Notes under the pieces: model-generated
Told to the model about the DNA's origin: nothing
What the model saw: only the letters and a program-made list of their open reading frames with translations
Databases searched by the model: none
NCBI RefSeq assembly: GCF_001949145.1
Contig: NW_019091357.1
Coordinates: forward strand, 872,671 to 936,670
Reading direction: 5' to 3'
DNA: 64,000 nt
From: Acanthaster planci
Taxonomy: Eukaryota
Position numbers and translations under genes: made by a program
Shown here: one piece after another, positions 4,835 through 61,814 of the stretch
Layout of the letters: every line of letters starts with the position of its first letter
Position numbering within the stretch: the stretch's first letter is position 1

Positions 4835-5020
4835 CAGATGAGGAAGGGTTGTAAGACAAATTCCGTTACCTTCCTGTGGAACTTTGAGCCACAAGCTGGA
4901 CTGAGAGAGAACGAAATTTTCTTAGCAAAGGAGACTCGGTTAATCGGAACTTAACTCCACTGGTTCTCGAGCAACTACTAAATGCAGGCATTACCATCAC
5001 ATCGCTACCAACAAAATGAC

Positions 5021-5084
5021 CACTCCCGACCAATATGGGTCTTTTCAACCGATGAGGGGGTGCTTCTGCTCGAAGTGGATACTG
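5021..5084 (+). repeat. Dispersed repeat fragment, copy 1 (copy 2 at about 13633-13698)
   Basis: accaatatgggtcttttcaaccgatgagggggtgcttctgctcgaagtggata matches accaatatggctcttttcaaccgctgaaggcgtgcttctgctcaaggtggata. Confidence 0.75.
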
Positions 5085-5281
5085 ATATTGACGAGGACAG
5101 AAACAGTGACAAGACTTTAAACTTATTTACTGCACCCGTACTGGCATCAGGGCTATGTAAATTTAGGATCAAGGCTGGAGTAGGTGGCTACGCCCCTTGC
5201 TAGGCTAGTACAGAGACGTAGACGCGTAATTCGTCCATGTTTCACCCCATAGAAACCCCATGCCACAACTCTGCAAAAGCT

Positions 5282-25703: not shown

Positions 25704-28700
25704 TCAAGCATGGTGAGAGGGGTAGCTAAGGTGACTACCTCCTCGGTTAAGCTCCACTTTTGCGTAACCAAGAGCGTCACTCTTCTCTTCGCTGGGAACA
25801 ACAAATAATTCCGCCTGGCCAAAGGAGTGGGACTCCAGCGCCTCATCGTCGCCAGACTCACTCTGAGCTCCATTAATAGCACCCTGATAGACATGTTTCT
25901 CTAGTTCGATCTCTTCCACCAAGGCTTGCTGCAACGACCTACCGCGGGACATCTCTGGCCGGAAGAGCGCCCTGGCGTAGGCGGGGAATTGCGGGACCTG
26001 GTAGGCGCTGCTGGACGACTCGTGCCTGACAGACGCCCGCGGAAGGATAGTGCTATAGTCGGGCTCAGCGTAGTCTCCGCCTAAGCCGTGGTAGTCGTTG
26101 TCGACGGTTGGGGGTCCGCTCCGCACGTCGAAGAAACTGCTCCGTGGCCAGGCGGAGACCACTAAGTCACCGATGACGTCCGGAGGGACGGTCTCCGTCT
26201 CCAGGTTGGCTGGTTTGTTGGCAAGTGCTACAGATGCCTTGTAACGCTCCAAGTGCCTGGAACGGTAGAATAAAATCATAAGAGGCACATTCAACCTAAA
26301 AAAAGACAAAACCATATTTTATAATCTCCTAAATTCTGTCTTTCTTTTCCCCTCAACTGAAGACAAATTGTTAAACAGCTGCAAAAGAAAAAATCTTCTG
26401 TATGGATGATAGCTTTCAGAAAGCAGAAATTTTTATTCTTACTTTTTGTCTTTTCGGCAGGAACAGCACCAGCAAATGGTTATCAGCAGGAAAATCAACA
26501 GGATCAGACCCAGAATGGAGCTAACGGTGACTAGAAATAAGGAAAAGAAACAACAACGTTGGACACTTTGAATCAACGAATGCCTACAGTATTCAACAAA
26601 TTTCTGTTTTAATCCGGTTTCAACATGTTCAAACTTGTTATCTTGTCATATTCCAGCTTGAAAACAACAATTTAGGAATGAAATTAAGTGGAATTACCAT
26701 GGATACGTACTTATTATAAGCAGTTCGGTGGATCCCAATGTGGCTTCGTCATCTGGGCTACCTAATGTCAGAGAGATTTACGACCATCAGTTTTTGAGAA
26801 ACAGTGCAGTCCTTGCTCTATTTTTACATCCCAGCACAAAACACACAAATCGAATTAAAGCAAGAAAAATACGGGCTCTATCTTTTGCCGAGTCAAACGC
26901 ACAAAGAGGTTGAAGTTGGTATAATGTTGGGTGTTTTTTTTACCCCCGAATTGCCTCGTAGAGGGACGATCTAGCTTGTTATCAATTGCTGTCAAAACCA
27001 ACTTAAAGCATCAGAAAACCTTTTGCATTGATTAATAACACCTTATCAAAAGCAACACTTAGTTTTACCTGCATCTGTCGAAACGATGGTTATGGCATCC
27101 TCTGATGTCGTCAGGCTCTCACTCATGGTCCTTGAAATGGACGGCAACGTGGTGGCCACTTCTGTCACGTGATGTGTTGACAAAGGTTTAACCCGAGTCG
27201 TGGCTTGTGGTGGAGCTGTAGTGGAATGTGGAGCGGTCGACTCCACGGGTGTTAAATGTGCTGATGGCGTAGTTGCATACGATGTGGATATAGGTTTTCC
27301 AGTTGATAATGTCGGTACTGTGGCAACCCCTTGTGTCGTTGGATTTGATGTTTCTGGAGTTGTTCCACCAGAGTGGTCTGTTATCGAGGTAGACACTCCA
27401 GTATCGGGTCTGGAGGTCAGTTGTAGAGTAGTTAGCTCTACTGATGTCGCTGATGAGTAACTTGTAGGCTGTGTGGTCGTGGAAGCAGCTTTACTTGTGG
27501 AAACAACAGCAGTAACTTCGCTTGATGTCGTCAGATATTCGGGGCTGGTCACTCGCACTTCTAAATACGGAGACAAATTCTCCAGGGTTACAGATGTGCA
27601 TCAACTACACGGAAACTGCCCATCCCAATTCTACCAGAGCTTTGACGATCCTTTAGAACTAAATCTAATCTGAAAAAAATCTTATTTAAACCAAGTTCAT
27701 AACATAATCTCTTCTGATCGACAGAGAGACGTCTTACGCCCTTAACCCATTTCTAGGTTTAGACTTAGCAGACAACTTTGTAGGTTTCTCATCAAGCCTC
27801 GCTCCGTCTCTGGCTATTCATTTTTGATTCTACAATCAATTTCAAACGTTTACTGCAATGAAAATATAACTGTTGACGTACATGAGACGGTTGATGTCTC
27901 GGTGCAAGAACTTTGTGCCTTATTCTTTCATCGCAGAAGCTAATCTCAAAGCCAGAAGCCCAAACTAAGACGATTCCAAGGTTTAAAAGACACCGTAAGC
28001 CTTACCGACGCACGTGGAGTTAGGTGAAGTCCACAATCCGTTGCTCATGCATACAATTAGTGCTTCGCCGTCAATTTCGTATCCCTCCGCGCAGGACAAA
28101 ATGGCCAAGCCTCGGTACTCGGCCGACAACACAGTGACGTTACCATTTGCTGTTGGCGTCGGTTCTTCACAAGTAATAACTGTTCGGATAAATAGAACAT
28201 CTAGATCAGGAGTTCAGGACTCTTAAAGGAAGTTATAATTTTTATTGCCTGTCCAAACAGAAAACTGAAGACGTACTATGCACAGTGGAACACGTTCAGT
28301 AAGAGAGCGTGCTAAGGTTCGTTGTACACTGTATTACAAATAGGCTAATGATGGATTTTTTTAAAGCCCAAATCAAACTTTTTCCAAATCTAAAAATTAG
28401 TTAAATTTGCTATTCTTAGATCATAAAGAAACCTCTGATTTTGCCTTTACAAGTCATGAGATATGTGAGATATTATATCAAGTTCATTGTGCCATGTTCG
28501 TGTCTTACTATTGCAGGTGGTTGGTAGGCCACTCCAAGTACCGTTGGCCAGACATTCTCTGGACTCAGACCCAGTGAGTTTGTACCCTTCCTCGCACATG
28601 AATTGAATGATATCGCTGGTATTAAAAGTGCCGTACTCAAGCTCAGACCGTGTGCCGTGCAGAGGCACGCCTGGGTCTCCACAGGTGGTGATATTCCTTG

Positions 28701-31700
28701 CATCTGCCAAAAGTTTTCAAATGTGAGATTTTTGGTTGAGAAATAGATGGCACTGAGTCTTGACAAGAACCTGACCACAAACAAGAACCTGACCACAAAC
28801 AAGAACCTGACCACAAACAAGAACCTGACCACAAACAAGAACCTGACCACAAACAAGAACCTGACCACAAACAAGAACCTGACCACAAACAAGAACCTGA
28901 CCACAAACGAGAAACTGACCACAAACNNNNNNNNNNNNNNNNNNNNNNNNNNNNNNNNNNNNNNNNNNNNNNNNNNNNNNNNNNNNNNNNNNNNNNNNNN
29001 NNNNNNNNNNNNNNNNNNNNNNNNNNNNNNNNNNNNNNNNNNNNNNNNNNNNNNNNNNNNNNNNNNNNNNNNNNNNNNNNNNNNNNNNNNNNNNNNNNNN
29101 NNNNNNNNNNNNNNNNNNNNNNNNNNNNNNNNNNNNNNNNNNNNNNNAAGAACCTGACCACATACAAGAACCTGACCACAAACAAGAACCTGACCACAAA
29201 CAAGAACCTGACCACAAACAAGAACCTGACCACAAACAAGAACCTGACCACAAACAAGAACCTGACCACATACAAGAACCTGATCACAAACAATAAGCGC
29301 TCCAGTTCTGCAAGTAATCCGTGACTCTTTCACCCGATAAACTACCACAATGAACTGGCAATGTGACGGTGCTGAAGTATCCATTCGATGATGATGATCC
29401 AGCACTATGACGATAGTAGATGACAGTGTGATGGAAATTTAACCGGTAAAAACGACAATAAACCGGCAATGTAACAAAACTGAAACAATTACATCACTGA
29501 AACAGTAAGAAGAACTAAAACAGGACATATGACGACATCAAAAAGGCGATGTGACGTCACAGAATAGCACCGTACATTTATAGCACGTCAACAGAGCACG
29601 CATTGTCATGGGTGTTAGAAAATGCAAAAAATGAACAGTGAAATTCCCTACCTGAACGACATATGTAATATCTCTGCTGATTCTCGCAAGATATACATTG
29701 CCAATTGTCCATCTGTTGTAAATTGAAATTCATCTCAATGCATTTGACATCCTGTCCAGATGGAAACGAAGGATCACAGCCAGGCTGGTCATCCTTCCAA
29801 AAGGTGTCCTTTACCAATTCACCTGAAAAATACGAAAAAAAAACATGCAGCATTGTCTTTAGAAAAAACCAGGAACAGCTTGAAACAAACTTCAAGAAAT
29901 GTGGGTGACACATCAGGTGATTTTTGGAAAACATTTTGGAAATTTTGGCAATATCTGGTACTCAGTAGTAATTTCTGTCTACCCATAATTCTCACTCACC
30001 GTCTGTCCATCTCCATACACGAGATGTACTGACAGTCCCACCTATCCACCAATGTGTGTTGGTACCTCCGTAGGAACTCATCAAGGCGTTTCTAAGAAAA
30101 TCCTGCAGGCCTTGATCTGTAACTTCCACCAACCATCTATTATTGCTTTTGCAATAATCTCTAGCGCCGTACCAGGTGCGAGAGACCTGGCTGAATTCAA
30201 TGCAATACTTGTCGTAAGCCCCAAAATTAGGAAGACTGGGACATGGCAGGTCTGTTAGGAAAATAATAATTACGGTTCTTCATCAGTTAACTGAACTGAA
30301 TCACGGAGACTTCCACTTGGACAGTGGTTGGGTTGAGGTTTAAGGTGTGAAACCGACTCTCCATAGGCGCACTGGACTCAATTGATCATCTATTCTAGGT
30401 AAATTGCGGTACAGCCCCACCTTTTGTCCATATAGTGTGGAATTCGGAGAAGGAAAAATGACCTTTACTTTGTCTGAAGCTTCACCAAACCCACTGAGTC
30501 CGCTTTATAAATATGCGCCTTACTGAGGGCCCTCTTTTACATAGACTCTAATTACGAAATAGAAACCTCTCCTCAAGCATTTGTTAAACGATACCAAATA
30601 TAGTCGCGACATGTTCGGCGCACGGTGGATGTCAAGACGGTCTTTGACAGTCGTCAGGTGGAACGGCCCCATCAACCGAACCACTGCAAAGCACACGAAT
30701 CAGTGGGAACCATGATCATTCTTTTGGAGTCCAGCTAGCCTTAAATTGACAACAAATCCAGGAAGGATTCCAAAACATTTCACTAATATTTAAACATTTC
30801 AAATGTACTGTCATCAGTATTTCATTCTGCGCGAAGAAAGCGAGTCCACTAGCCGACGCGAAAGCCTTACCAAACTGACATATTGAGTACATCATTCTGG
30901 GATTCACACTTGATCCACAGTTGATATCATTCCATTGGAGGTCACTGCGATCAGGCAGGGCACTCAAATAAAGACAGCCCTCATTATCGACAATGTTCTG
31001 TTCCCCGTCTGCCAGAGTGAAATACTCGATCGGCATCTGACCTGCAGGTATACGGTGTATTGCAACAAAACCAAGTTATGATTTCGGCGGACATAAAAAA
31101 ATGCTGACGTTACAAAAGAAAAAAAAATGCTCAAACACTGACATCGAAACCACCCTGCCAGCCAACGTGCAACACCACTGCCAGATTTTAACTGAACTTT
31201 TTCCATTTACTTACTGCTTTCCCAGATCCAATTAGTGGCTTCTTTCCCGCCAATCCAGTGTTCCCTCGAATCAATTTGAGAAAACAGAAACGTCTGCTCC
31301 TCGCTGTTCTCAACCTTGGCCAACGACCAGCCATTCGCATTGCAGCTCGATTGGGCTTCGCTCCATGACACACCGTTCTCAACCGGGATGAAACAGCTTT
31401 GCGAATCGTACAAGAGACCAGTAGCAGAACAGGCTGGTTTTGTGACATTCAAACAAGAAGAAATCTACATGTACTTGTGAATTGTATACCTCAGTGGCGA
31501 GTAATGGTCGTCCTCTTTAGTTATAAATATTATAATAAATAAATCTGTTTATTGCAACGACCTTTCCTTCACCTTTCTCTGTTCAGGAATACATCGATAG
31601 AGACTGGGATTTTTTTAGAGGCAAACACTAGAATAGATGAACTTTTACCGTAGAAAAATGAAACATTTCTGTTGCCTCTTAAAAACTGAATTACAGATTG

Positions 31701-32924
31701 ATGTAAAAAAAAAATCCGCCAATGGCAACTCGCACAACATTTCTACTAGAAAACGCCTGCATGGGACGTATATCGCCCACCCTTTGCTGTTCAAGAAAGA
31801 GCAAACAATATTTATACATGTATACCGAGGAGGCAGACAGAGAATAGTGAAAACAATGCCGGCACTAGTAGCTCCGATTGAGAATCAAAGAAAAGTGACC
31901 ATTGGGGAGAATCAGTCTTAACACTCACGTAAACACCTGAAGTTCGTCTCTGACCATGTTCCGTCAGGCAGGCATCGCCGCGTGGGGTCTTCATCTCCAC
32001 TGAATCCTTCAAGGCAGGTGTAGGTGATGGTGCCCCCCGTGATGTAACTATCGTGCGCAGGAGTGACAATGCTCCCTGCAGGCGAGTCGGGTGCCAGACA
32101 TCGGATTGCTATGACATTAATGACAGACTACGTTACTCAGAGAAGCCACTGATTTCATCTCTTTGTGTTGATAAAAATTAACGAGTGAGTCTCCAACGGT
32201 TGGATTTCATGGCAGAGCTTTCCTGAATGGTTTAAAGATAAGACGTGCAAACTGACGGTATGCCTTTAAACACTTCTTCAATTGTGATCAGCTCACAGTT
32301 ACTTCTCAGGGTGATATCAACCATTAATAGAGAGAAAACTTAAGAGTTATGCAGCTTGAAAACCGAAGAATAATAAAGGTTATTTGGGAGATGGCATCAT
32401 GTGTATGAAGGGGAGTAATCGACCAATACCTGTGCAGTTTGGCATTGTCTCGCCCCAGCCCTGCCCCGTCTCGAGACACACAGCCACTGACGTCGGTCCT
32501 TGAAGCTCATAGCCTGGCAAGCACTCGCAAACGACGTACTCCAGTCCGTTGGTTTGGTTTGTGTGGCAGGCTACGTTACTGAGAGACTCAGTGGAGTTAC
32601 ACGGGATCGCTGCTGGAAAGAAAACAAGTTTTAAAAAAGAGGTTTTGAATGAAAAAAACAGAAGAGCTAGAACAACACAGACTTTAGGGAAAACATTCAA
32701 GCAACTGCCCGGGACGTTACGAAATTACAAGCAACTTCGAAAGCAGCGTTTAATCAAACTTTACCATAACAAAAGTAAAAACAATATGGAGGTTAAGGAT
32801 TATGCATCAGAGTGGTAAAAAGCATTTCAACTTTGTCAAAAATATTACTCTTACCTTGACTGGCGGTAATCAGGACAAAGAACACAAACAAGGGAAGAAC
32901 TTGGCGATTTCTATAGCTGTCCAT
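25704..32924 (-). CDS. Receptor B: SP-CCP-CCP-CTLD-CTLD-CCP-CCP-mucin stalk-TM-tail with ITAM and ITIM motifs, 13 exons
   Basis: Exons (-): 32855-32924 (Kozak GCCACCATGG, SP), 32430-32612, 31929-32108 (CCP1-2), 31215-31433, 30871-31041 (CTLD1, WIGG, WND), 30000-30251, 29652-29822 (CTLD2), 28509-28703, 28006-28179 (CCP3-4), 27069-27560 (S/T-rich), 26711-26761, 26443-26530 (TM ITVSSILGLILLIFLLITICWCCSC), 25704-26256 (tail). Phase-1 domain introns throughout, frame open. Confidence 0.92.
28763..29293. repeat. 18-bp minisatellite (acaagaacctgaccacaa)n in intron 7 of receptor B, interrupted by gap 28927-29147
   Basis: Near-perfect tandem copies on both sides of the N-run. Confidence 0.95.
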
Positions 32925-35794
32925 GGTGGCCAAAGGAACTCATCAATTACATGTAAAGCTTAGACATCAATCGCACAGCTTGCGTACGGCCGGGTCGCGT
33001 CGATCGAATGCTCTATGAATTGAGTGGTAGGTTCCCCGTAGAACAAACGATCCAATGCGATTTTCACTTAAAAGAGATTCTGTACGCTTCTTCTTGTCGC
33101 TGCTGCGAACGATGTATACGTCAGAAAGGAAATAAAATCATTTTCCTGATAGATGAAAGCCGGTCAGCGTCATGGACAGCTTGTTACCATCAGTCCCCTG
33201 ACCTGACCAATCTTATCACCTCCGACTAACGACAAACATTTTTTTCGATATCCCTATCATGCTTAGCTGTGGGTAAATGACCATGGTTGGTAAGAGTATG
33301 ATAAGACCAACATATAAATTAAAATCAAGCGACGTCTGTCAGATCTTTGGACGGACCCTAGTTCGCCTCTTGGCAACTGATGTATTCCTAGCCTATAGAA
33401 TCTCCACTATTCCGCTCCCAATTACAGGTTCATGATGTCTCAGGTGTTAACACTTTGGTGAGGGGTTTCGTAACTGGTCTAAATTTGGCGTTACTCTCTC
33501 CACTAATAGAGAGATATGGATGCTTGCGATCGAATGACGTTGCCCTGATGCAACTCCCTATAGTACCCAGGCCTGCTGAAGACCAATCTCGAGATATCTC
33601 TGTCCCATGGTTGCGTAAATCTCAATCGTTATTGCTATATTTGAAGGGGAAGGATTCTTCTTCATCCAAATATTGATATGACTTGGTGATAGCGGAATAA
33701 TTTATCTTATAGCGCGATTACAAATTACCCCACAGAATGTATCATTACGCGATAAGGAGCCTTATACAACAGTAAGACCGTGGGGTCATTCTCATTAAAG
33801 ACTTTAAATAAATAGCACATTTTGGCTGACCCAAGAGGAGCAAACATCGGGCATCTTTCATCAGCTGACAATGTTCCGTGGCCTTGCAGTAGCTTTGAAG
33901 TAGTAGTTTGTATAAGTCGCACATGCGCACTCTGACAGGAAAAATGTGGTTCACTCACTGGCATGGATCGGGACCGGGAGACTGAATGTACTAATTGACG
34001 TTTAGCGCCCTCACTCGGCAGCGGAAATAGGTCAGGATTTTGAAGTCCTCTGCATGAGGTCACGTGAGAGTGGGCCGATAAAAGTTTCTTATAACAGGCA
34101 AACACAGAATTCAAAAAATTTTTTTATCGATATCAGATTTAAGTATGAGGTGTGCTCCCAAAACAGAATGACAAAATTTTGTTCGAACAAATTACCCAAC
34201 TATAATTATTTTTAAGACACAGGGTCAGGTACCACGTCCTACAGTGACTTACAATGTAATAAAATTACTGTCTCGATTTTTGAACGCAAAACAGGCATTC
34301 AGTGTTAAGAGGTTGTCTGGGTTTCCTTCACACTCTCTACGACAGCGCCCTCCATTGATCTCATTACTACGGGCAAACAATGCAGACCGATTCCTATTTT
34401 GGGAAGGATCATGGGAGCAAGAGTATTAAACTCTTATGCAACGACGTCGGTTTTCAACCAAACCCTGCTGTAAGGGAATGAACCAACTCGTCGGTGAACA
34501 CTCCATTCTCGATCCATTGAGCAGAATTGCTGGCTTTTGTCATGATTATACCGCCAATTTTTTTCCAGGAACCATGGGGAAGATCGATTGGCCATGACAT
34601 TTCAGTACGTACACAGCGATCGATACTTAGACGAAAACCTATAGCATGAACAAAAGTTTCATTACCAGTTTAAAGAGAAAATAATTGTTATGATAAACGA
34701 AACTGAATAAATGCACAGAACATCCTTCATGTTCATTTACAAAATAGATTTATGGCTAAAATTGTTTTAATTCAAGAAATCCGTAGACCAGATCTAGTTA
34801 TTACACAGCATTTTTAGCATATTGACACTTTCTTTCTTCTGAAACCGAAACCATGGCTCATTTCCTGCATAAATTTCGTCGATGATGTTAGTGATAATTT
34901 TTATCAGGCCAAAGCCAGACATAAATCATACTTAGCGCACAGCAAGTCAAACTGTTTGCGTCCATAGATTGTATGATCATTTGTCATACCCAAGCAAACT
35001 TGTACAGGCCAATTAGTCTGGACGAGTATACATGGCGTCAATTTGAAATATTGCCTGCCGTATGGCTATTACCAAAGTACAGTCAGACGAAATTACTTGG
35101 AAAGTAGGACTAATTATGTGGTAACTATATACCACCTTTAGCGCAGAGTAATATACACGTGACAACCAAGGCCGCACGTACACACACGGTGAGTGGACTG
35201 AACCATCTGAATAGGGGCTACATCTTGTACCGACGTTGGCGGCGCACTACAGCATATTGACGCTCCATGACAACGGTCATAACCCTGCGAGGGCCGGGAG
35301 CGTCATTATTCACCATAGCAACGGCGACGCAGGCCAATAACAAGGGGTGCAACGCGGTGAGTACAGGGGAAGCAATCAATGGTGAGGGGAGACATTATCA
35401 TTGTACGAGGCGTGGAACAAGGACCTTCGATGTATTACATCTTTTTCGATATCACTGCGCGCAATCAGGCTAATACCTGTGCACGATTTCCAGCTTCTAC
35501 TGTTGGTTGATGCCCAACGCACGTTATGAGAGCTACAGTGTAGCTGGCACAGTCAGAGGAAGTCACTGTTTTTGCTTGATACAAAACTACACCAAATCTC
35601 CGGAATACCAGATAAACTGCGCGACGTTAGTGTGTATTATACCTCTCGAACTTTGGACTCTGCTTCGAAAAAGAAGCTCTGTCTGCTTTTACTTAGTTTT
35701 AGCACTTTGCAGTGCAGTGAAGTGTCGCGACAACACGACAACATATTTACGCTAGAGACGTGCGTGGCTACGCAGAGCAGAAATCAGGGAGACG

Positions 35795-41200: not shown

Positions 41201-41678
41201 CATGTACTGGTCCTATCATAATGAATTCAGAATACGTTTCTGCTACACTGTGTTACAAACACTCTACAGGAAATTTAATACCCCAACAGTTTAATTAATA
41301 TTTACAACAGTTTTACAACTCCTGTTCCCATTCTGACAGGATTACAAGAAGGAAAAACATGTGAATTTTATTATGTACAGCAGGAACATCTTTGAAAAAT
41401 TACAGCTATTTAGGTTTGCCAACCTGCTGCGAGAGTTGACAATCTTGTTTCTCACTCTTAAAGAAATGTATTGCCTCACCATGGTACAGTTCCCAATGAG
41501 ATTATACGATCTAATTCGCTGGAATATTTTACATTTTCAAGTAGGTGTATCAATTAAAACAAAAACAAAAAGTACAAAAAAGACAAAGCGACGAAAAGGC
41601 TAGTTTTATTTATTACCAATATTGTGCGCCATTGTTACCAATGTACACACATTGTGTGTGGCACCAGTTGAGTCAAGA

Positions 41679-41777
41679 TTAGTTCTTAGGAATGGCAAAG
41701 TAGATTATGACGCCGAGGATTGCCAACAGAATGAGACAGACAATGACGATAATGATCTTCTTGCGCCGAGCTTTGCC
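41679..41777 (-). CDS. STX7: Syntaxin alternative terminal TM exon b (GKARRKKIIIVIVCLILLAILGVIIYFAIPKN*)
   Basis: Acceptor ccctccctgacag, 99 nt, phase 0, TAA stop. Confidence 0.85.
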   Translation of the reverse strand, partial: GKARRKKIIIVIVCLILLAILGVIIYFAIPKN

Positions 41778-47700: not shown

Positions 47701-50573
47701 GTGTAATGCTGCAACTCATCACTGATAAAAACAACCCAAAGAATAATCAGGGTTTCTAATGGTTCATGTCAGCAGATTCTGGTCATTGTCATCATAAAAG
47801 TTTGAAATTTGTGAAAAAAACGTCATCCATACAGGTTTTCATTCAAGTCATTCTTTTTTCATTTAAATACATGCAAGACTGAATTTTGCCCCAGAAGATC
47901 ATTTTGTCTTGTGTACTCCACGTCAAGGAAGCAGTTCTGTGGGCTTCATTGCCCATAGGCTGAATTTGAGATTTTGCAGGGGATCCTAAAGATTGACTAA
48001 TTTAGCTAGTTTGTTCAAATCACAGCATTGAACTCTTCACGACAGGATTATTTTGACCCGACTGCTGGCATGCCCTGAATAGAGGGTTTGTCCAGCAGCA
48101 GGCCCCATTGAACCAGCAGCTGCATGGCGAATAGACAGTATGCGTGGTATGCACTAATCCTCACACAATGGTGCAGTAGTAGCAGTCCTCCGTAGCGAGG
48201 GCGTTAAACTCTTCTTGATGTGAAGCATTGTGGGATACTAGTTGGTCACAAATGGGCTTTTTGTTTGTGCGCCAAAACTCAAGATCGGTGTTTTCAATAT
48301 GGGATCCTAACTGTTGCGCTAGCTCTATCCGCAAAGTTTGAATCCAATCGCTGCAGAGAGGGCACTTACAGCTTCCCTCTGACACTCTTGTTGTCATCTG
48401 GCGTTCCAAGTCTGGGAATAATCCGCTCAATTTCTTTCACTGAGGGAAGAAACAAGACACAGAGAGGTGTCAAGTACGACAAAAACCCAGGAGAAGTGTG
48501 GCCTTGGGGATAGGCTTATGGCTCCTCATATTGGAGGAGGGTGTTCCATGATGAGGTCATGTCAGCTGAACACGAGCTTGATGAGACTCGTTAGCTGAGA
48601 GGGGACCAATGTCAAATGACCTGCTGTTGGTGTGTTAGTGTATTTTTAACACTCTGTGTATGGATTTGCCAATATTCAAAGCCAACGTTTGTAAATCATT
48701 TTTTTTCCCATAAAAATTTCTGCGAACAAGTTCAGTTGAGGAGCAGAATGGAAGTACTGCAAGTTTGAGAGACCTTCAATATACCTATGAGACACCTGTC
48801 TTAGACACCTGTCTTAGTTGTCACAGCCATTATGTCACTCTCTGTTCTGGCAATCACATACCATTCTGGGAGATCTTCTGTATGTTAGAGCCAATGCCCT
48901 GCACCAGTCTAGTCTGATCTGCTGCAGAGCTGTTCCTCCCTACGGAAAAATAAGAGCACAAATTTCATCATAGTATACGGTTTGAAACTGTCACTGATGC
49001 ACTGGCCTGAGTCCAGCAATTATAGATCCAGTCTGGTGGCTCCTGTTACAGTGTTCTCCATGAGGGGTTTTAGCAGGGCGGGCCGCTCTGAAAAAATTTT
49101 AGACCGCCCCGCTTAAGTTTTGCAGCCCCACCAAAAGTTTCATCACCCTGCTATTTTTTCTACTGAATTTTCAGTGTTTTCCACCATCTTAACAGTTTAT
49201 GCACATTTTTGTCTATAAATGCAAAGAAGTTTACCGCACTTTATGGAATGAACATGATGAGTTTGCCATCATTATTTAGCACAACAGTATAGTACTTTCC
49301 TGCATTTATGATCAAAGCCAAATGCAGTTAAGTACATAAGCACAAAATTCTCAACTGGTTCCAATCTCCCAGTCGTAGCATTTTCATTTCTTTGCATCAA
49401 GAGCCAACACAAATGTTCATGTACATGTATTTGGGTTCATAAACTGTGGAATGTGGGGAATAGACACTAATCATTTGCAGTACAGCTGAAAAACTCGAGT
49501 TAAATTTACACAATTTTCACTTTTTAATTCACTGAAATTGTTATTTATGAACCAATTTTTTCCAAATCAAGAAATTCTTAATTAGAAAATCAGCATGCTA
49601 CAATGGCTCTGGCTGAAAATGGATATTTTGCACAGTTACTTTTTATATGAAAAAAATTGTTACTATTCGGAACTGGTTAAAGAGATTCAGAACTAGAAAA
49701 TGTGTTGTCACTTTTAACGATCCCGTAAGTCCAAATTAAAAGCCCAGCTTTTGAAAGCAATTTTGTAGTTTTTCAAATACACGAGGTGGACAACTGACCA
49801 TATTTCACCAGAATTATAGGACTTTGTCACTGGAATTTGACCATGGAGTTATTTTTGAAATCCAGAATTAGGGAAGCGACTGTACATCATCCACTCGCGC
49901 TGTGTCCTTGTACGTACATAAACCCCCAAACCATCCACTTGATGGGGAGTTCCGATGATTAAAAAAAGAAAATGCCCCAGAAAAAAAATCAAGTTTTGAA
50001 GACCTCTCAGTAACAATCTTGCCTTCATTTCAAACTGTTACCACAAGCAAATTTGATTCAAGGAGTCACAAGAAAATGCCAAGAAAATGCACCTTTAATG
50101 TTAAATGATTTGATACCTTATTTCATTACCACATCAGGTCAAACACAGTGTTAAACACAGAGAAAAAAAAAAAACAGAAAAAAAAACTGAAAGAAAAACA
50201 ATAGCTATTTCGGCCAGAGACCAACACAGCTAACTATTCAAATACAATGATCGGTGCTACACAACATACTAAACTACAGAACATTTCAACAAGTCTGAGT
50301 ACAAGTACAAAAGAAGGTATCTAATGCAAAGGCATGTTCTAAAAACACCTGTTTCCTAAATCAATAAGTGGTATTTTTTTTTCTTCTCCCAAAGCAACAG
50401 CTATTTGGTACCAGCGCCTACAAAACTTAGTCATGATGTTTAAATGAAATAAACTCATCACTGATCCATTATCACAGTTGGATGATGGATTTACCTGCAG
50501 AGCCTGAGGTGTAAGTTGAGAAACCCTCGTCTCTGTACTCTCCCCCACCAAAGTCTCCACGGCCAAATGACAT
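41679..50573 (-). CDS. STX7: Syntaxin-7/12 family Qa-SNARE
   Basis: Exons (-): 50495-50573 (MSFGRGD..), 48862-48939, 48370-48439 (LGTPDD), 47622-47721 (LQHYTNQLAKDT), 47033-47170 (RQQKLQRERFTNDF..FQRVQR), 46815-46858, 46403-46499, 45607-45679 (DIVDVNTIFKDLATMVHEQGDMID), 45256-45338 (SIEANV), then TM exon 43880-43978 or 41679-41777. STX7 versus STX12 not resolved. Confidence 0.92.
42295..42620 (+). mobile_element. tRNA-derived SINE with a CORE-like central domain
   Basis: Degenerate A box (tgcctaatgg), B box GGTTCGAATCC, then tgtgaccttgggccagtcactttacc..ctctctcaacccag, resembling the conserved central domain of CORE-type metazoan SINEs. End coordinates approximate. Confidence 0.65.
43880..43978 (-). 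CDS. STX7: Syntaxin alternative terminal TM exon a (SKARRKKILITICCLVLLAAIVLIIYLVVPKN*)
   Basis: Acceptor ttccttgcag, 99 nt, phase 0, TAG stop. Confidence 0.85.
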   Translation of the reverse strand, partial: SKARRKKILITICCLVLLAAIVLIIYLVVPKN

Positions 50574-51588
50574 CCTTCCGCTCTGCTTTGATTCAAGATA
50601 CACTACTCTCAGCTGCCTGAGCAGTTCACGGTGTTGATGTGGTGGGTGGGCAAGTCGGCTGTATGGCCTTGCTCGTGGTCAGTGACTTTTAATAACAGTT
50701 CTGACTCTTGAATAGCTACTGTAAGTGATGCATAGTGGTAATAAACGAGTCAAACCTGTTGGATGGAATGACAGCAATTTTAAAAATCAATAGACTTGAT
50801 GGAATAAAGGAACCAGCCTAAAAAGTTTGATGAAAAAATTTCCCAGAGAAATGTAAATGCAGATCTTGTGAAGTCCACTTTTAGTTTCGAAAATACTTGA
50901 TTAGCAACCACGGAAAAAGTACTATAAGTAAAGAATTCAATTTTCATGTTTAACTTAGATACAAATCTACATATACGGTGACTACGGTCACAAACATTAA
51001 AAATACATGTGTAACAACTAAACCCACAAAAATATATTAACCCTAACAGTCCCAAATCCTCTGATTTTAATATGATTTTATATTCACCCCAGGGGGTTAG
51101 AGTTAAACCTGAGATGTCACTACATGTACTTTTGAAATGTCGTATCATTCATTATGCAATGATATGGTATCCATTGTTGGTGCCTAACAGTGTACATGTA
51201 CATTGCATAATTACACACTTTCAATTTCTACCTTGAACCGAGTCGGTGTTTGACTGTGGGCCAAGCTACATAAACACAACATGGTCTATTGCAAGCGTGC
51301 AATACAGCATGCTCTGTGTGCAATCATGCAATGTACATGTAGGTGTTCTGCTGATGATGTCATCAAATCAGCCTGGGAGCGCGAATGGACAATTGGGGAT
51401 TTTTTGTGGGCGGGCAAACACAGGATCTTTTCATTCATTTTGGGATCACGATTCACGGGGTAAACATTGAATTTATAATGTTTTTGAAATGGTTACCTAT
51501 TTATTGCTATTTTAAAATACTTTACGTGAACTAAATGATTTCTGTTTCTGTTAACCTTTAACAAGCAATTGCATGTGTGTATGGTAGA

Positions 51589-51754
51589 GTCATGACAGTT
51601 GTCATGCAAATCATGTTAACAATTTTAACAGTCATGACAGTTGTAATGCAAATCATGTTAACAATTTTAACAGTCATGACAGTTGTAATGCAAATCATGT
51701 TAACAATTTTAACAGTCATGACAGTTGTAATGCAAATCATGTTAACAATTTTAA
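51589..51754. repeat. 42-bp tandem repeat, about 4 copies
   Basis: gtcatgacagttgtaatgcaaatcatgttaacaattttaaca at 51589, 51631, 51673 and 51715. Confidence 0.92.
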
Positions 51755-53808
51755 ATCTACCTGAAGACTTGTTGAAAAAAACATGATTATTTCACTCTTT
51801 AGGTGCATATGAATTAGTTTTAATCATTATTCTCTTTTCTTAAAATGCTCTCCCCATAACTGTATTAAGAATAAAGGAGAGAAGGCATGAGGGATAAAAT
51901 GCAAGCATCCTGAAGTTAAGTTGAGAAATAAATTACAATGTAAGCATTCAAGTTTAAATCACATACATCTACCTGCTCTGAACCTGTACAAAATATGGCA
52001 TTAGGGATTAACATTACAGAGCATAAAACTGACCAACTAAAACTAGTCTAAAAAGAAACCAGACAGACAGATAGATGCTATTTATTAAACTGCAAACAAC
52101 CATGACAAAATAAACATGAACATTGATGCAGAGCAGACCAGATGTTGAGAAATCTCTGTACTGATTATTGACAGGGGTGTGAGTGGACACTTAAAAGTAA
52201 AGTTGAAAACAGCTGGCAAATAGCTGAAATGTAAAAAGTTCTCATACTTTTGCACAGACCAGATGTACAAAAAAGCTGAAATTCAGGGTCAACATCTGAA
52301 CAAAAAAGCTGAAATCAGATAAAAAGCTGATTACTCACATCCTTGTACTGAACATACGAACATACATATTCTTGTATGCAAGTAAACATTTGAAACAGAT
52401 CATGAACTCGACAACTCACTACAAAGAGACGAATGAGGCTGAGTCATACAAGCGCAAAGCAACGTCATGCACTAACTACGCAACTTACGCACGTTATCGT
52501 GCCATTCGTGGTTAATACTACCAACGTCATGCTCAACAACGTAATAAATCACCTCCTGTCCCATTTATCGAATGAATATTGAACGGATATGCATAAGCGA
52601 TTTTTGTTCCAAACGTACCTCAGACAAATGATAGAATCCTCGACCGAAAAATACGGTATTTGCCCAAGAAAACTTACCGAATTAAGAGGGCGTCTACATG
52701 TATTTCGAGTTACGATATGTCATCATTATCCACCGCCTTGTTAATCATTAACAATAGAGGGCCTCAAGAGTGACCTCTTGAGGGCGGTATATCAAAAGAA
52801 GCGTGTGCGTTTTCAAATACTCAACTTCGTCTCCGTCTCAGGCTTCATGTAGGAAACCAATCCTCGATTGTGGGCCTGAAGCGTTTAAATTAAATTGAAA
52901 TACTGTAATGTTTGGCTCTTTTGCATCTTACTTGATGTTTTGTGGCACTATCAGATTGCTATTGCGCTTACACATAGCATGGAACAAAAACGATTTATGT
53001 AAGAATCGTGGCAAACCACACGAAGAAATGTTAAAAAAATAAAAAAGATAAAAAATATAAAATTGTATTCAATTGGCCTTCCTGGCAAAAATAATAACAG
53101 ATAAATAAAAAAGCACAAGATCGAGCAGATACAATGACCAACATTCACTTATTTCCCCTTAATTAATATTATTGCTGAGGTATTTTTATGAGAAAGTATG
53201 CGGAGGGCATTGGTCAAGTTCAGGGTAACTTTTTGGGTCGCCTATGTGGGACGTGAGATACGCCTTATTTGTTCCGAACGGCTGCTGCAAAGGCACAGTA
53301 TCCCTTAGAAAATATTGTCCATATCTTCGAGGAAATTAATATACAGCCCCTCGAATCGAAGCATCAACCGCTTCTAGAAATCCCGTCTCAGCATATTATG
53401 TGAGGCCATGCACGTTTAATAAATATTACAAAGATAATGAAGTATTACCCACTATCATAGTTTAGATAACAGTTACTGTGGCCTTGAGTAGACCTCACGA
53501 AAAAGGTTCATTAAGCCAGCGATTGTTTGATAATCGGTAACCGATACCATCTCGAGACAATGTTTGCAGTTGACCAGAGCGTTGGTACCCGCGTCGAGGG
53601 GGTACTCTCAAAGTTCCCCATTTAGAAACGTTGATAATCATTTGGTTCCAACAAAAATGTTTAGGCCTATATGTTGCTTCCCGTAAGACGTACTAGCTTC
53701 GCACAACTTTCAATCTGTCTGATGAGGATCATTTTCCGGAGATCTTCTTGAGGCCGGAATTGCGTCAGTGGACCCGCCGAATGGTGCAGCATCGATGCAG
53801 TGGACGTA

Positions 53809-56800
53809 ATGCCGTCCATGTCAGCGCTATTGTGCTGGTGGGTGTGGGTGGCTGGTTTGCTGGCTCTGATTGGCCAGTCTTCCCTGGGTGAGCAACCCTT
53901 TTAGAAATTAGTGTCCAATAACGATAGGATTGTCGTGCTGTTAATATAAAAAGAGAAGGAAACGAACTGGATGTGTGACATTAAATCCAATCCTTAAGCT
54001 TGTGTTTTTTTCCTGGCAGTTGCGCTCAGGTAATGAGAGTCTTACGCCAGTTTTCATAACATTACGATGTAGTACGATCAGGGAGTCCACCTGGTGGGCT
54101 AGACTTTTAGCGCCCCTACTTCACAATGCATTTAAACATAAAGGGAACACCGAAAGTATTAATACATCTCTAGCCGACAAGCAAGACAGGCGGGGGCGGG
54201 GCCTAACGATCTGAGAGAAGGTTGCTGCTTGGTTTGTAATGTCTATATCGGCATACATCTCTGTCGTTAACAAACACCCCCTGGTCATGTACCTACAACT
54301 GTTAACGAGGGGGTCTGTACTTACAAAGCCTCTTATTATCGGGAGGTAATGAAGAAGTTGATCGTTCGCATTAGTAACCCGAATTAAAATACGTGCACCC
54401 GACGGTTATCATTTTATCTGATCGCTTTACTCATTTTGACGGCTGCATAAATCGGCACATTTTTCTTCCTGCATTTCACACTAATTGCCATCATCTGGCA
54501 TTCGATGTTTTAGTATTCAACTTTTGAAATGATTATTACTTTGATCAGCTTTTTCATCTGATCAGTTTCTATATTGGCTTGTTTTCCTTCTAGCAGCGAT
54601 CCCGTGTAACTCCACTGAGTCTCTCAGTAACGTCGCCTGCCACACAAACCAAACCAACGGCTTGGAGTACGTCGTTTGCGAGTGCTTGCCGGGTTATGAG
54701 CTTCAAGGACCGACGTCAGTGACTGTGTGTCTCGAGACGGAGCAGGGCTGGGGCGAGACAGTTCCAAACTGCACAGGTAGGTAGATTGCTGCCCTCAGAC
54801 ACATGATGTCGCCCCCCAAATAATCCTTCTTGTTCGACCTAAGAATTAACCGTGGGATGATCACAGTTGAGGAAGTTTAGGTAATACCTAAAGTTTGCAA
54901 ATCTCCTTTACCAAGTTAAAGCAAGCAAGATAGCTGTGTCCTGCTATGAACAATCAAATCACTGGAGACTCACTCTTTAATTTTTATCAACACCAACAGA
55001 CGGGATAAAATCAGTGGCTTATCTAACGCACTCTGTCACTAATGTCATAGCAATCCGATGTCTGGCACCCGACTCGCCTGCAGGGAGCATTGTCACTCCT
55101 GCGCACGATAGTTACATCTCGGGGGACACCATCACCTACACCTGCCTTGAAGGATTCAGTGGAGATGAAGACCCCACGCGGCGATGCCTGCCTGACGGAA
55201 CATGGTCAGAGACGAACTTCGGCTGCCTGCGTGAGTGACGAATTCAAATGACTTTACTTTTGAAGTGTTTCACTGCAACACCATTGAGACGCTTTTAACT
55301 TGGCTACTTCGTGCCATTAATATTTATTTTATGTGTTCACACTGTGATTTTTGCTCCTTGTTCTACAACCGTGTAGGCCCAGGCTGCGTCATAATGTCGA
55401 AATGTTTTTATCTGCAACATTTAATTGTTAGAAGAACAGGTGAAAATGCATAAATGTTAAAATCGCAGCCGTTACGTCGTCCACTAGTTCGTCAAGCATA
55501 AAGCAATACTTCTGATGACAAGTCCTTTTTTCTTTTGTTAATTCATCACAAACGCAAGCTTGTCCGGCTCGCGGTCTCTGGTACAATTGGCAAAGCTGTT
55601 TCATAGAGGTCAAGCATGGTGTGTCATGGAGCGAAGCCAAATTACGCTGCGAGGCAAAAGGCTTCTCGTTAGCCAAGGTTGAGAACAGCGATGCTCAGAC
55701 GTTTCTACACAACTCCCAAATAGAAAAGAGGGAACACTGGACTGGTGGGAAGGAAGCCAGGAATTGGATCTGGGAAAAGAGTAGGTCAAAACCAATCATT
55801 TTCGTAAATGAAATCTCGCAGCGGCGGTGATCTTAGTGAAGTTAGAAACGGAACGTCTTATTTCGTGAAGACTCCGAGGTGGATTTGCGTCTGGGATTGC
55901 CTGGGACTGTTATCTTCTACGTATTTCACTTTACACCACCTTTTCCCACAATTTGATACACTCCTTTGCATAATTGTCTTGTTGACAAAGAGTCATGACA
56001 GACTATATTGAATGTGATCAGTCAAAAATCTACTGGTGATCCTATCCCACATGTATTTGCCCCCCAAGGGTGTTGACACCTATGCGTAATGAGTATTCGT
56101 TTTTTCTTGACTGGTGTCAGCATTGCCTTATATCTGTGGACTACCTCACGATGCTCACCATGGACATGACATGTTTTTATCATTCCTTTGGGCTTCAGGT
56201 CAGACACCAATCGAATATTTCGTCTGGGCAGACGGGGAACCGACCAATGTCGATACCGAGGAGTGTCTTCATCTGAGCGCGCTGCCAGGTCACAGTGACT
56301 ATGAGTGGAATGACAACAACTGTCAAAAGACTATTGACAATAGCAGAATGATGTATTCGATTTGTCAGTTTGGTAAGGCACTGACATCAACAAGCAACTC
56401 GTTTTTATATCACAGAATGAGATAACGATGGAAGGGCATTTCAAGTAGCCGTTCATGTATTGAAATATCTTAAATCACTGAGAATCCTTTGAGATCATTG
56501 AGATCCGAAGATGTACATGGGGATATTCGGACTCCAAGAGCCCATGATCGTTCCCACTGGTGTTTATGACAAACGTTGGGGTTACCATGTTGGACAGTCA
56601 CCGTAAACAGTCGCGTGGCGACCTTTTCTTTTACTCCATTTTCATCATTTGCACAAATGATTTAGTCACGTTGTAGTTAAAGAACCGCTAATGAAAGATT
56701 GAAGATTGCCATAAGGTAATTAGGGTCCGTCTTTTCTCTACAGATCAACCATGTCCCAACCTTCTTAATTTTTGGTCTTACGACAAGTACTGCATCGAAT

Positions 56801-59545
56801 TTAACCAGGTCTCTCGCTCCTGGTATGGCGCTAGAGATTATTGCAAATTCTATAATAGATGGCTGGTGGAAGTCACAGATCAAGATATGCAGAATTTTCT
56901 TAGAAACACCTTGATAAGTTCATACAGTGGTTACTACACACACTGGTGGATTGGCGGGACTGTCAGTGCATCTCGTGCATGGAGGTGGACAGACGGTGAG
57001 TAGAAGAGTAAAGAAGTGTTTGTTACTAGAAAAAAAGGGCTCAAGTTAGTCACCTCTTAATTGCCTCACCCAAATTTCTTGTATTTTGTTTTGAACTGCG
57101 TCTGCTCTCTTCCACATAGCAAAGTTTGCTTTATTCCCACCGAAGCATACTTTCGTTTTGTTTCTAGGTGAATTGGTACACGACAGTTTTTGGAAGGGTG
57201 GGTATCCGGACTGCGATCCTTCGTTTTCAGCTGGGGAGGATGAAAAATGTATTCAGCTTAATCTCGGTGAGCAGCAGATGAACAACTGGCAGTGTACATC
57301 CTGCGAGAAGCAGCAGAGACATTACATCTGTCGCACAGGTCAGGAAGTCACATCTGTTTTTGTGTGTGTTCTTGTGCTATCACGTGCTTAAAGTGGCTGT
57401 TGCCATGGTTCAGTTGTCTGCCTTTGAATCACTAGGTCATTGGTGTCTCACTGCCCTGTCAGGTCCCCATATTGGCGAGTAATTGTTGTCAAATAGCTGT
57501 TCATTATGGTAATACATGTACATGGGCGGTTTCGCTTATTGCCTGTTCAGAGCCGTCACATTGCTAGTTTACTGTCCGACGCGTCGAAAAGTAAAAATCG
57601 TCTTTCCGAATATGATTTATAGATTCCAAGAATATCACAACCTGCGGAGATCCAGGCGTGCCTCTACACGGCACGCGGCATGGGACCGACAGTTTCAGAA
57701 CCAGCGATACCTTTCAATTTACGTGCGATGAAGGGTACAAACTCGCTGGGTCCGAGTTTAGAGAATGTCTGGCCAACGGTACTTGGAGTGGCTCGCCAAC
57801 TACATGCAACGGTAAGCCCTCCATGACAGGACGAACTTTTAAAATATCTCATAATCTGCATAATGTCGCAGATTCTTTAATTATAATTATTCCTTTGACG
57901 AATTTTTGAGTGTTTGGTAAGAAGGTTTTTGACTTATTCTCAAGACCCATATGTTCTTTCAGAACTAAATGAATCCTACGTTCGAATACTGGATTAATCC
58001 GCTGAACAATAAATACGATACAGAGCTAAATTATCCACCTTTCCTCACTCCACCCTAATTTCAGGTTCGAATCCAGAAAACCTTTTTACCCCTCAATGAC
58101 CTCATCGTGCCGATTTTTCTGTGATTTGCCTTGACCTTGGGATTCATTTATCCCAACAGTAATCTCGTGTGGAGAACCGGCGGCAATAGAGGGCGGTAAT
58201 GTGACGGTGTTGTCGACCGAATACCGAGGCGTGGCTATTTTGTCCTGCATGGAAGGATATGAGATGGAGGGTGACCACAGGATATTTTGCCTGAGCAATG
58301 GTTCATGGACTCGAGGCGATTCCATCTGCAGACGTAATGATGCAATGTCCTTGGTGTAAAAATAATGTCTTGTTTTGAAATACACGTACATGTACTAGGT
58401 TCCCAGAAACCTAATCATCTGTTTGCTCGTGGACACCCAACGTAAGTTGCTGGACGGTACCCTCTTCATTAGCAATTTACTTTGAATGGGTGCCTTTTTG
58501 AAGGTCTGTGCAAGGCCCAAATGAACCCTCTCAAATGAATGGTAAAGATGATGTTCAGTTCTGCCCTTATGCCCTTTTATTCCAGATGTGGCACACACTA
58601 CACAGTCTATTCTTACCTCTAAGTACTCGACCAGCTCCGTGTATCAGGAAGAAAGCACCCTTAGTCTTACACAGGAAACAAATGCCACCACAGAACCGAA
58701 ATTAACCACGAGAGATGCTGAACACAGTGTTCCGACGCTAACTGCCGAGGTCACATCTCCAAACGGCGCTTTGACAGATTCAACTAACGGCCAGTTTACC
58801 CCTAGTTCTGAATTTAGCTCATCCACAACATCGGCAAACACAAAATTGGCTAATGACAAACCTTCGTCAGCTCCGTCGAAAGGTGACGAGACTGTGGGTA
58901 AGCATACTTTTTAAGTTTAGTGTTTGCAATGTTTAGACTGACTTGTTAATTATCATAACGCTAATGGAATAACTAAAACTCACTGGTTCCCGTTTCCTTT
59001 CCGTTGTGCAGTGCTTATCATAGTTATCTGTTTACCAACGTTCCTGATTCTTCTTGCGAGTGTTGTTCTCCTCGTCTTCTTCTGCAAAAACAAACGGTAA
59101 CATTTCCTCGTCCAAGAACCTGACTACATTAGTACTGGTTTCAACCATTCATGTAAACGTATCTCGGCCATACATTAATTATGGTTTTGTTTCATTACCT
59201 ATTTCGAACACCTTCAGCTTTGCGACTAAGATCCACCCAATCAAAGAAGACCAAGTGATTACCCCCCATCTCAGTGATGACGTCATGAAGAACCAGCAAG
59301 CGCAAGAAGACGCAGAGTCGACTCGATATAAGACCGCTGTGTCTCGGTCCATCTCGCCACCGAGAGGGGGTGTCCCATCGATGACAGCTCGACCCCTCCA
59401 TTTTCAAAATAATAATAACAACACAAGTGCAACGCCATCTACGATGATACTAAAGACAAAGGGTGGGAGTAATGCGGGACGCGGTGCAGTCCCGGTAGCC
59501 TGGGATGAAAAAGGCTATCAAGGTTTTGAAGTAGACTATATCTAG
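53809..59545 (+). CDS. Receptor C: paralog of receptor B, SP-CCP-CCP-CTLD-CTLD-CCP-CCP-mucin stalk-TM-distinct tail, 12 exons
   Basis: Exons (+): 53809-53887 (SP MPSMSALLCWWVWVAGLLALIGQSSL), 54594-54776, 55051-55230, 55559-55780, 56199-56372, 56744-56995, 57168-57338, 57623-57811, 58160-58333, 58586-58897, 59012-59096 (TM VLIIVICLPTFLILLASVVLLVFFC), 59218-59545. Frame open; exons 2-9 align one-to-one with receptor B. Confidence 0.92.

Positions 59546-60825: not shown

Positions 60826-61814
<989 letters not shown>

Follow-up and report, generated by a model that had tools for sequence, protein, structure and literature searches.

How do two neighbouring receptor genes come to carry the same eight-exon ectodomain between ends that cannot be aligned, and what might such a pair do? 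The question is raised by a 64,000-nucleotide stretch of the genome of the starfish Acanthaster planci (RefSeq assembly GCF_001949145.1, contig NW_019091357.1, positions 872,671 to 936,670; this whole stretch is called the window below), in which receptor B, on the minus strand, and receptor C, on the plus strand, stand head-to-head with 20,885 bases between their start codons. B and C are old paralogues, and both tails are kept in a second starfish, Patiria miniata. Comparison of the four genes strongly supports the view that the ectodomain of C was overwritten by gene conversion, for which B was probably the donor. As to function, the reading we favour, at a probability of about 0.45, is that B may act as a tyrosine-signalling receptor and C as a non-signalling decoy, which would meet partly the same ligands, probably in innate recognition.

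Both genes lie where a first-pass annotation, made from the letters of the DNA alone, had placed them, with open frames and GT-AG introns. B is an intact type I receptor consisting of a signal peptide, two CCP domains, two C-type lectin domains, two further CCP domains, a mucin stalk, a transmembrane segment and a cytoplasmic tail, and C is an intact type I receptor with the same domain order. All B exons listed earlier are present, but a thirteenth, of 51 nt (26711-26761), between stalk and transmembrane segment had been missed; once this exon and the second of two tandem CCP1 acceptors are used, the B model equals the NCBI protein. A search with one B exon returned XP_022089084.1 of Acanthaster planci as a 100% match, and a search with the C tail returned XP_022089872.1. 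Pfam recognizes four Sushi and two Lectin_C stretches in B, and in C Sushi in all four CCP exons and Lectin_C in the two first-half lectin exons. The parts of both receptors are given below in window positions, with aa for amino acids, dS for synonymous substitutions per site, and ITAM, ITIM and ITSM for immunoreceptor tyrosine-based activation, inhibitory and switch motifs, respectively.

25704..32924, minus strand: receptor B, complete coding region; 13 exons encoding 931 aa; NCBI XP_022089084.1, LOC110978405
32855..32924, minus strand: signal-peptide exon (exon 1) of B; B-type, sharing 54% with Patiria B and 29% with C
32430..32612, minus strand: B CCP1 exon; six cysteines, tandem acceptors 32612/32609
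31929..32108, minus strand: B CCP2 exon; spliced model and Pfam
31922..32628, minus strand: probable recent conversion tract, B side; CCP1, intron 2, CCP2
31215..31433, minus strand: B lectin domain 1, first half; spliced model and Pfam
30871..31041, minus strand: B lectin domain 1, second half; EQN...WND replaces EPN...WND
30000..30251, minus strand: B lectin domain 2, first half; NCBI isoform XP_022089092.1 lacks it
29652..29822, minus strand: B lectin domain 2, second half; without EPN/QPD and without WND
28509..28703, minus strand: B CCP3 exon; spliced model and Pfam
28006..28179, minus strand: B CCP4 exon; spliced model and Pfam
27069..27560, minus strand: B Ser/Thr-rich stalk exon; 163 aa, some reads
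26711..26761, minus strand: additional juxtamembrane exon of B, 51 nt; the Patiria orthologue protein has it too
26443..26530, minus strand: B transmembrane exon; no charged residue, inner end Cys-rich
25704..26256, minus strand: B cytoplasmic tail exon; encodes 183 aa, sharing 56% with Patiria B
26046..26093, minus strand: B ITAM YHGL-x8-YSTI; in Patiria YSGL-x8-YSTV
25755..25772, minus strand: B ITIM LGYAKV; in Patiria TSYAKV, an ITSM pattern
53809..59545, plus strand: receptor C, complete coding region; 12 exons encoding 782 aa in the present model, 641 aa in NCBI XP_022089872.1
53809..53887, plus strand: signal-peptide exon (exon 1) of C; C-type, sharing 52% with Patiria C
54578..55237, plus strand: probable recent conversion tract, C side; CCP1 54594-54776, intron 2, CCP2 55051-55230; dS 0.107 to B
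55559..55780, plus strand: C lectin domain 1, first half; its acceptor reads AAG, and the NCBI model lacks it
56199..56372, plus strand: C lectin domain 1, second half; EPT...WND
56744..56995, plus strand: C lectin domain 2, first half; absent from the NCBI model
57168..57338, plus strand: C lectin domain 2, second half; spliced model
57623..57811, plus strand: C CCP3 exon; the last exon grouping with B
58160..58333, plus strand: C CCP4 exon; dS 0.92, probably where the older conversion ends on the 3' side
58586..58897, plus strand: C Ser/Thr-rich stalk exon; 103 aa, end matches Patiria C
59012..59096, plus strand: C transmembrane exon; shares 89% with Patiria C, free of charged residues
59218..59545, plus strand: C cytoplasmic tail exon; encodes 108 aa, sharing 39% with Patiria C; lacks ITAM, ITIM and ITSM; ends D-Y-I, in Patiria D-F-V

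CCP1 of both genes (32430-32612; 54594-54776) has six cysteines and a C-x-C before a PGY motif, features kept in both Patiria genes, and draws weak EGF-like side matches in Pfam. NCBI also lists isoforms of B, one in Patiria (XP_038057640.1) with a short motif-free tail and one in Acanthaster (XP_022089092.1) without the first half of lectin 2; if these are real, splicing gives B decoy forms of its own.

The eight ectodomain exons of B and C pair one-to-one, with phase-1 introns at every flank (the intron phase is 1 throughout both genes save for the last, which is 2) and lengths in B/C of 183/183, 180/180, 219/222, 171/174, 252/252, 171/171, 195/189 and 174/174 nt. Each of the eight pairs scores above 1000 shuffles (p=0.001), as the first-pass annotation would lead one to expect from its eight shared exons with equal phases and near-equal lengths, and its remark that the signal peptide, stalk, transmembrane and tail exons defy alignment is likewise borne out, none of these exceeding 1000 shuffles (p=0.93, 0.81, 0.38 and 0.72). 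In the window compared with itself the resemblance appears as an inverted similarity of 28028-32628 to 54578-58311. The notion of a shared ectodomain thus stands in that all eight exons are homologous, at 60-95% aa identity, as a paired receptor should show in its extracellular part, but needs amending in that the sharing is uneven, reaching 95% over CCP1-2 and 60-77% over the other exons. CCP1-2 is not a collapsed copy, since 16 of its 363 bases differ between B and C.

Patiria has an orthologue of each gene (XP_038057639.1 for B, XP_038057856.1 for C), and between the two starfish the transmembrane segment is 78% (B) and 89% (C) identical and the tail 56% and 39%, respectively. The presence of two different tails is therefore not a recent accident, each having been conserved since before the Acanthaster/Patiria split. 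Under simple divergence since duplication each Acanthaster gene should be closest to its Patiria orthologue throughout, an expectation that fails for CCP1 to CCP3. Over CCP1, CCP2, lectin 1, lectin 2 and CCP3 Acanthaster C is 95, 95, 68, 72 and 78% identical to Acanthaster B, as against 80, 46, 60, 48 and 76% to Patiria B and 42, 36, 44, 41 and 60% to its own orthologue, Patiria C. After the lectins Acanthaster C has two CCP repeats, like B, where Patiria C has about 9-10. The signal peptide, transmembrane segment and tail follow the gene, and CCP1 to CCP3 follow the species: 19 of the 22 informative quartet sites in CCP1-CCP3 group by species (one by gene, two neither way), whereas 33 of 34 in the signal peptide, transmembrane segment and tail group by gene and one by species, although for the transmembrane/tail count the B and C tails, which cannot truly be aligned, had to be forced into register, so that the pairwise identities are the cleaner evidence. 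With a sea-urchin outgroup the tree by genes, which assumes no conversion, is rejected over CCP2-CCP3 (approximately unbiased, AU, test, p=5.8e-8; CCP1 was left out since the sea-urchin protein lacks most of it), and the best tree joins the two Acanthaster ectodomains first to Patiria B and then to Patiria C, nesting both with Patiria B. The argument is independent of the rate at which Patiria C evolved, because two paralogues that predate the split could not otherwise share 95% of CCP2 when the B orthologues share 46% of it.

In CCP1-2 the synonymous divergence between B and C amounts to 0.107, and in the remaining six exons it reaches 0.555 (Fisher p=7e-8). Intron 2, which lies within the less diverged part, is the sole one of 11 introns that aligns at length (157/215), introns 6 and 7 giving short matches slightly over the shuffle maximum. 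These values point to two non-reciprocal waves of conversion, an older one that would have covered lectin 1 to CCP3 and a recent one over CCP1, intron 2 and CCP2, with CCP4 likely marking the 3' edge of the older wave. No more than two waves are claimed, since the six older exons do not differ significantly in dS (chi-square p=0.09). The ratio of nonsynonymous to synonymous change (dN/dS) is 0.25 and 0.34, so both copies appear to be under constraint. Two other routes to the same pattern were considered and set aside. Reciprocal exchange by inversion would leave one C-type ectodomain and swapped signal peptides, neither of which is seen, and recent duplication followed by capture of a foreign tail is ruled out by the full C orthologue of Patiria.

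A more distant relative exists in the sea urchin Strongylocentrotus purpuratus, whose XP_011678107.1 (automatically named 'P-selectin isoform X2') is colinear over the entire CCP-CCP-lectin-lectin-CCP-CCP order (30% over 490 aa, E=8e-59). Like B and C it joins this six-domain module to a transmembrane segment, and like B it has an ITAM tail, but it carries EGF repeats where B and C have a mucin stalk. Its 69-aa tail has no BLAST match to the tail of B or C; unrelated to both, it carries a separate ITAM, a pattern seen in 0.1% of shuffles. The module thus defines an unnamed echinoderm family of which XP_011678107.1 is a member. No homologue from a third starfish appeared among 56 matches or the best 150 of 6,513, a weak negative in lists crowded by CCP-repeat proteins. 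The literature searched, which mostly excluded subscription journals and supplementary tables of echinoderm transcriptomes, describes neither the family nor the loci, in line with the earlier statement that this domain order belongs to no named family.

The tails had been estimated at about 185 aa with ITAM and ITIM for B and about 110 aa without them for C, and this proved accurate, the lengths being 183 and 108 aa. The B tail combines the ITAM YHGL-x8-YSTI with the ITIM LGYAKV, and its Patiria counterpart (YSGL-x8-YSTV and TSYAKV) conserves both ITAM tyrosines and the YAKV; when the B tail was shuffled 20,000 times, 1.6% of the shuffles showed the ITAM pattern. In C, by contrast, neither starfish has an ITAM, ITIM or ITSM, nor any Lys, Arg, Asp or Glu inside the transmembrane segment. 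What is conserved in C is the transmembrane helix, the juxtamembrane part of the tail, and a D-[YF]-[IV] end that we take to resemble a PDZ ligand. Of the two functional pairings first suggested, signalling/decoy fits the sequence and 'opposing' does not, because C has neither a motif nor a charged transmembrane residue for an adaptor while B holds both motifs; a sequence proxy for opposite signalling finds none between B and C in either species.

As to ligands, lectin 1 can be aligned to mannose receptor CRD4 at its Ca2+ site, with WND in all four starfish genes, while lectin 2 of B and C is without the canonical EPN and WND motifs, which in a mannose-type domain stand at Ca2+ site 2. The surface truly common to B and C today is CCP1-2, the outermost part. 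In the predicted mechanism a ligand would engage this membrane-distal pair, possibly along with lectin 1, the mucin stalk extending these domains from the membrane. C would take up that ligand but would not signal through tyrosine motifs, and could compete with B for it, buffer it or present it to B, being held in place by its conserved transmembrane helix and a possible PDZ-binding end. In B a Src-family kinase would phosphorylate the ITAM, to which a Syk/Shark-type kinase would be recruited, and the distal ITIM/ITSM would recruit a SHP-type phosphatase, effectors that belong to a pathway summarised in PMC9546547.

B and C appear weakly transcribed in the RNA libraries sampled, whose reads were drawn from about a fifth of each run and whose tissue is not stated. 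Reads on B numbered 12 in run X14 (stalk, transmembrane segment, tail and 3' flank), four in X8 (stalk) and none in X12; the B reads of one study lie in both directions, and strand was ignored. Reads on C numbered seven in X7, two in X10 and six in X11, with C-specific ones running from stalk to tail in X7 and, in X11, covering lectin 2 through CCP4 as well as intron 1 and the 3' flank. Four reads over 54634 carry the base of B and were not counted for C, and the seven reads of X7 include both B-type CCP1 and C stalk/tail reads. As to variation, one other DNA run differs from B by four substitutions in a 3,016-base contig covering CCP3 to tail only, both coding ones being synonymous, and sampled words of the C locus are present at 80-84% in four other sequencing runs. 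DNA run X3 yields a 166-base contig in B CCP3 (28531-28696) at a depth of 55.6, compared to 39.4 beside it; the excess could reflect a further near-identical CCP3 copy in that individual, and one contig break there is explained by a 33-base piece identical in C.

Several observations weigh against a conversion-matched receptor and decoy. With respect to the shared surface, 23-40% of residues differ between Acanthaster B and C outside CCP1-2, and the Ca2+/sugar motif of lectin 1, EPN in both Patiria genes, has become EQN in B and EPT in C. In Patiria itself the B and C ectodomains are 36-67% identical per domain, so that sharing is evidently not needed for both genes to persist, and the comparison spans two starfish and one sea urchin only. 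Inverted copies 21 kb apart can convert without selection, and rejection of a tree in which C is the donor is borderline (AU p=0.053). In the B tail the ITIM pattern alone arises in 38% of shuffles, and six of nine tyrosines are kept in Patiria versus 97 of 174 other residues, not clearly better, so that the ITAM is the better supported of the two motifs; the second half of the Patiria ITAM is YxxV. Finally, the NCBI model of C, XP_022089872.1, skips both first-half lectin exons, though these are intact in the DNA, and no splice junction of B or C rose above the threshold of the tool in the few reads sampled.

In favour of the signalling/decoy reading, the sugar-binding half of lectin 1 has eight B-specific changes and one C-specific change, as expected if C retains an older B surface, though this 8:1 asymmetry concerns one of seven segments and was picked out after the fact. 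In a bolder version of the same reading, quite doubtful in our estimation, an echinoderm would have independently evolved the logic of SIGLEC11/16, selection for repeated conversion matching a decoy to an ITAM/ITIM receptor of coelomocytes, and the decoy would preserve an older lectin surface from which the signalling receptor escaped under pathogen pressure.

The most serious of the rival explanations, which we judge unlikely though well short of negligible, is neutral conversion, in which inverted paralogues 21 kb apart swap occasionally and a B-type ectodomain is tolerated on C, with no functional pair. Against it, both waves are confined to the ectodomain and spare the signal peptide, stalk, transmembrane segment and tail, though these parts are too divergent to convert anyway, and the recent tract does take in an intron. 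Fixation of a whole-ectodomain replacement at about 40% identity would presumably be unlikely without effect; still, the Patiria ectodomains stay divergent, and the Acanthaster lectin domains, sugar motifs included, drifted apart again after the older wave. Proximity is named as a driver of conversion in PMC5701461.

Less probable again is an adhesion pair of the Furrowed/selectin kind, in which the common CCP1-2 would allow C on one cell to bind B on another, C being an anchored counter-receptor and B signalling contact through its tyrosines, in development, neurons or gametes and not in immunity. The D-[YF]-[IV] end of C in both species, presumably a possible PDZ ligand, would suit such an anchor, B looks little variable, and the latest part to be homogenised is the outermost CCP pair, not the lectins, but the lectin 1 EPN/WND motifs kept in both Patiria genes count against this reading. 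Furrowed, a CCP/lectin transmembrane protein, is described as a homophilic adhesion molecule in planar polarity (PMC4229721), and its second CCP is reported as the contact (PMC9954269); the domain order of B and C, however, is unlike that of Furrowed and the selectins. Moreover, the ITAM of B and, independently, of its sea-urchin relative indicates Syk/Shark-type signalling, which is known from immunity and phagocytosis (PMC9546547).

Two further explanations have very little to recommend them. That C is a decaying or mis-spliced copy, or its likeness to B an artefact of assembly or annotation, would account for the two lectin half-exons missing from the NCBI model, the one AAG acceptor and the very few C-specific reads, but it is highly improbable given that all 12 C exons are open with GT-AG ends, that the skipped exons have a dN/dS of 0.37-0.42 and no more C-specific than B-specific changes (7 versus 7 in the first half of lectin 1, 7 versus 10 in that of lectin 2), that the transmembrane segment and tail are conserved in Patiria, that CCP1-2 of B and C are not identical, and that most C words recur in the four other runs. 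Equally remote is a classical opposing or allorecognition pair, with C activating through an adaptor, B inhibiting and polymorphic self ligands, for although the shared ectodomain, head-to-head linkage and conversion recall SIGLEC11/16, and the unusually conserved C transmembrane segment (89%) could bind a partner without charge, that segment has no charged residue in either species, the ITAM lies in B itself, and B showed so few substitutions, the coding ones synonymous, in the other DNA run.

Between B and C lie two genes, one with a stathmin domain (35790-38240, plus strand, with MGCGGS at its N-terminal start) and one for a syntaxin (about 45000-52000, minus strand, SNARE domain exon near 45250-45340), and tblastn found no third copy of B or C within the 64-kb window. 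The 40-52 kb stretch is depleted in CpG (observed/expected ratio 0.51), which is the expectation for gene-body methylation of a housekeeping gene, and B (0.76) and C (0.82) are not depleted. B intron 7 holds an 18-bp tandem repeat and an assembly gap (28763-29293). Adjoining B on the same strand is a mosaic receptor (13111-21002, minus strand, exon set incomplete) with SRCR (about 20750-20960), WSC (about 17000-17320), CCP (about 16370-16575) and transmembrane (about 13870-13980) parts and a short tail containing YQDL, YEPI and YQTL, for which tblastn gave no relation to B or C. Towards the ends of the window are exons of a Rab-family GTPase (2960-5100, plus strand) and a Pro-rich exon (60802-61131, plus strand) with PPSY and PPGY motifs and no Pfam match, which we take to be similar to the start of LITAF or a similar small membrane protein.

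Should B and C truly work as a pair, receptor pairs maintained by conversion, of the sort seen in primate Siglecs, would have arisen outside vertebrates from unrelated domains. The two starfish offer a natural experiment, the same two tails standing under divergent ectodomains in Patiria, which is kept as a laboratory sea star, and near-shared ones in Acanthaster, and the unnamed echinoderm family, with ITAM tails in starfish and sea urchin, supplies candidate receptors upstream of Syk/SHP signalling in echinoderms. Even if conversion was neutral, the locus would still display a clear ectodomain swap between old paralogues, hidden under the automatic labels 'SVEP1-like' and 'uncharacterized'. 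The former of these does not suit C: SVEP1 is a secreted protein with vWA, pentraxin and EGF domains, whereas in C only Sushi and Lectin_C pass the Pfam cut-offs, and a transmembrane segment and tail are present.

Other known systems share some features with this pair. Selectins, Furrowed and Tribolium CTL15 are, like B and C, type I membrane proteins with CCP repeats and a C-type lectin domain, with roles in adhesion and, for CTL15, bacterial binding (PMC4229721, PMC9954269), but they have one lectin domain, another order, short tails and, in those texts, no described mucin stalk; nor do B and C follow the selectin plan of a single N-terminal lectin, EGF and CCPs, no EGF match reaching the Pfam cut-off. 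Invertebrate receptor families with ITAM or ITIM tails are already in print. Botryllus Fester/FcoR resembles B/C as a system of linked pairs in an invertebrate deuterostome, with a Sushi domain, with ITIM and hemITAM in one partner and with no tyrosine motif at all in the other, and differs in its combination of Ig with Sushi, its dozens of polymorphic genes and its partners without a shared ectodomain, the text of PMC12582321 never using the term 'gene conversion'. Hydractinia Alr likewise combines related ectodomains with diverse, unalignable tails, some with ITAM or ITIM, but in a large cluster of Ig/Fn3 proteins for which conversion is merely suggested as possible (PMC9546547). No Ig family is among the Pfam matches of B or C. 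Snail receptor clusters, too, are described as having a shared outer plan and different inner ends (PMC13712769). The literature searched, with most subscription journals outside its scope, yielded no invertebrate paired receptors with conversion or decoys, only a review of vertebrate Siglecs. It is there that the closest parallel lies: SIGLEC11 and SIGLEC16 are head-to-head neighbours whose N-terminal ectodomain exons and introns are homogenised by repeated gene conversion, and kept paired thereby, in front of different signalling ends (PMC5701461). They differ in being Ig-fold sialic-acid lectins 9 kb apart, one inhibitory through an ITIM and one activating through an adaptor, whereas B and C combine CCP and C-type lectin domains, lie 21 kb apart with two unrelated genes between, and combine one tail holding ITAM and ITIM with a motif-free one. 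B and C are not classed as paired receptors in the strict sense, since their tails do not signal oppositely by sequence and conversion does not recur per lineage in the two starfish species, Patiria B and C having stayed divergent. With two head-to-head genes, an ectodomain grouping by species and shared through conversion, and tails that group by gene and are old and conserved in Patiria, the likeness to vertebrate paired receptors first proposed for this locus has nonetheless gained support.

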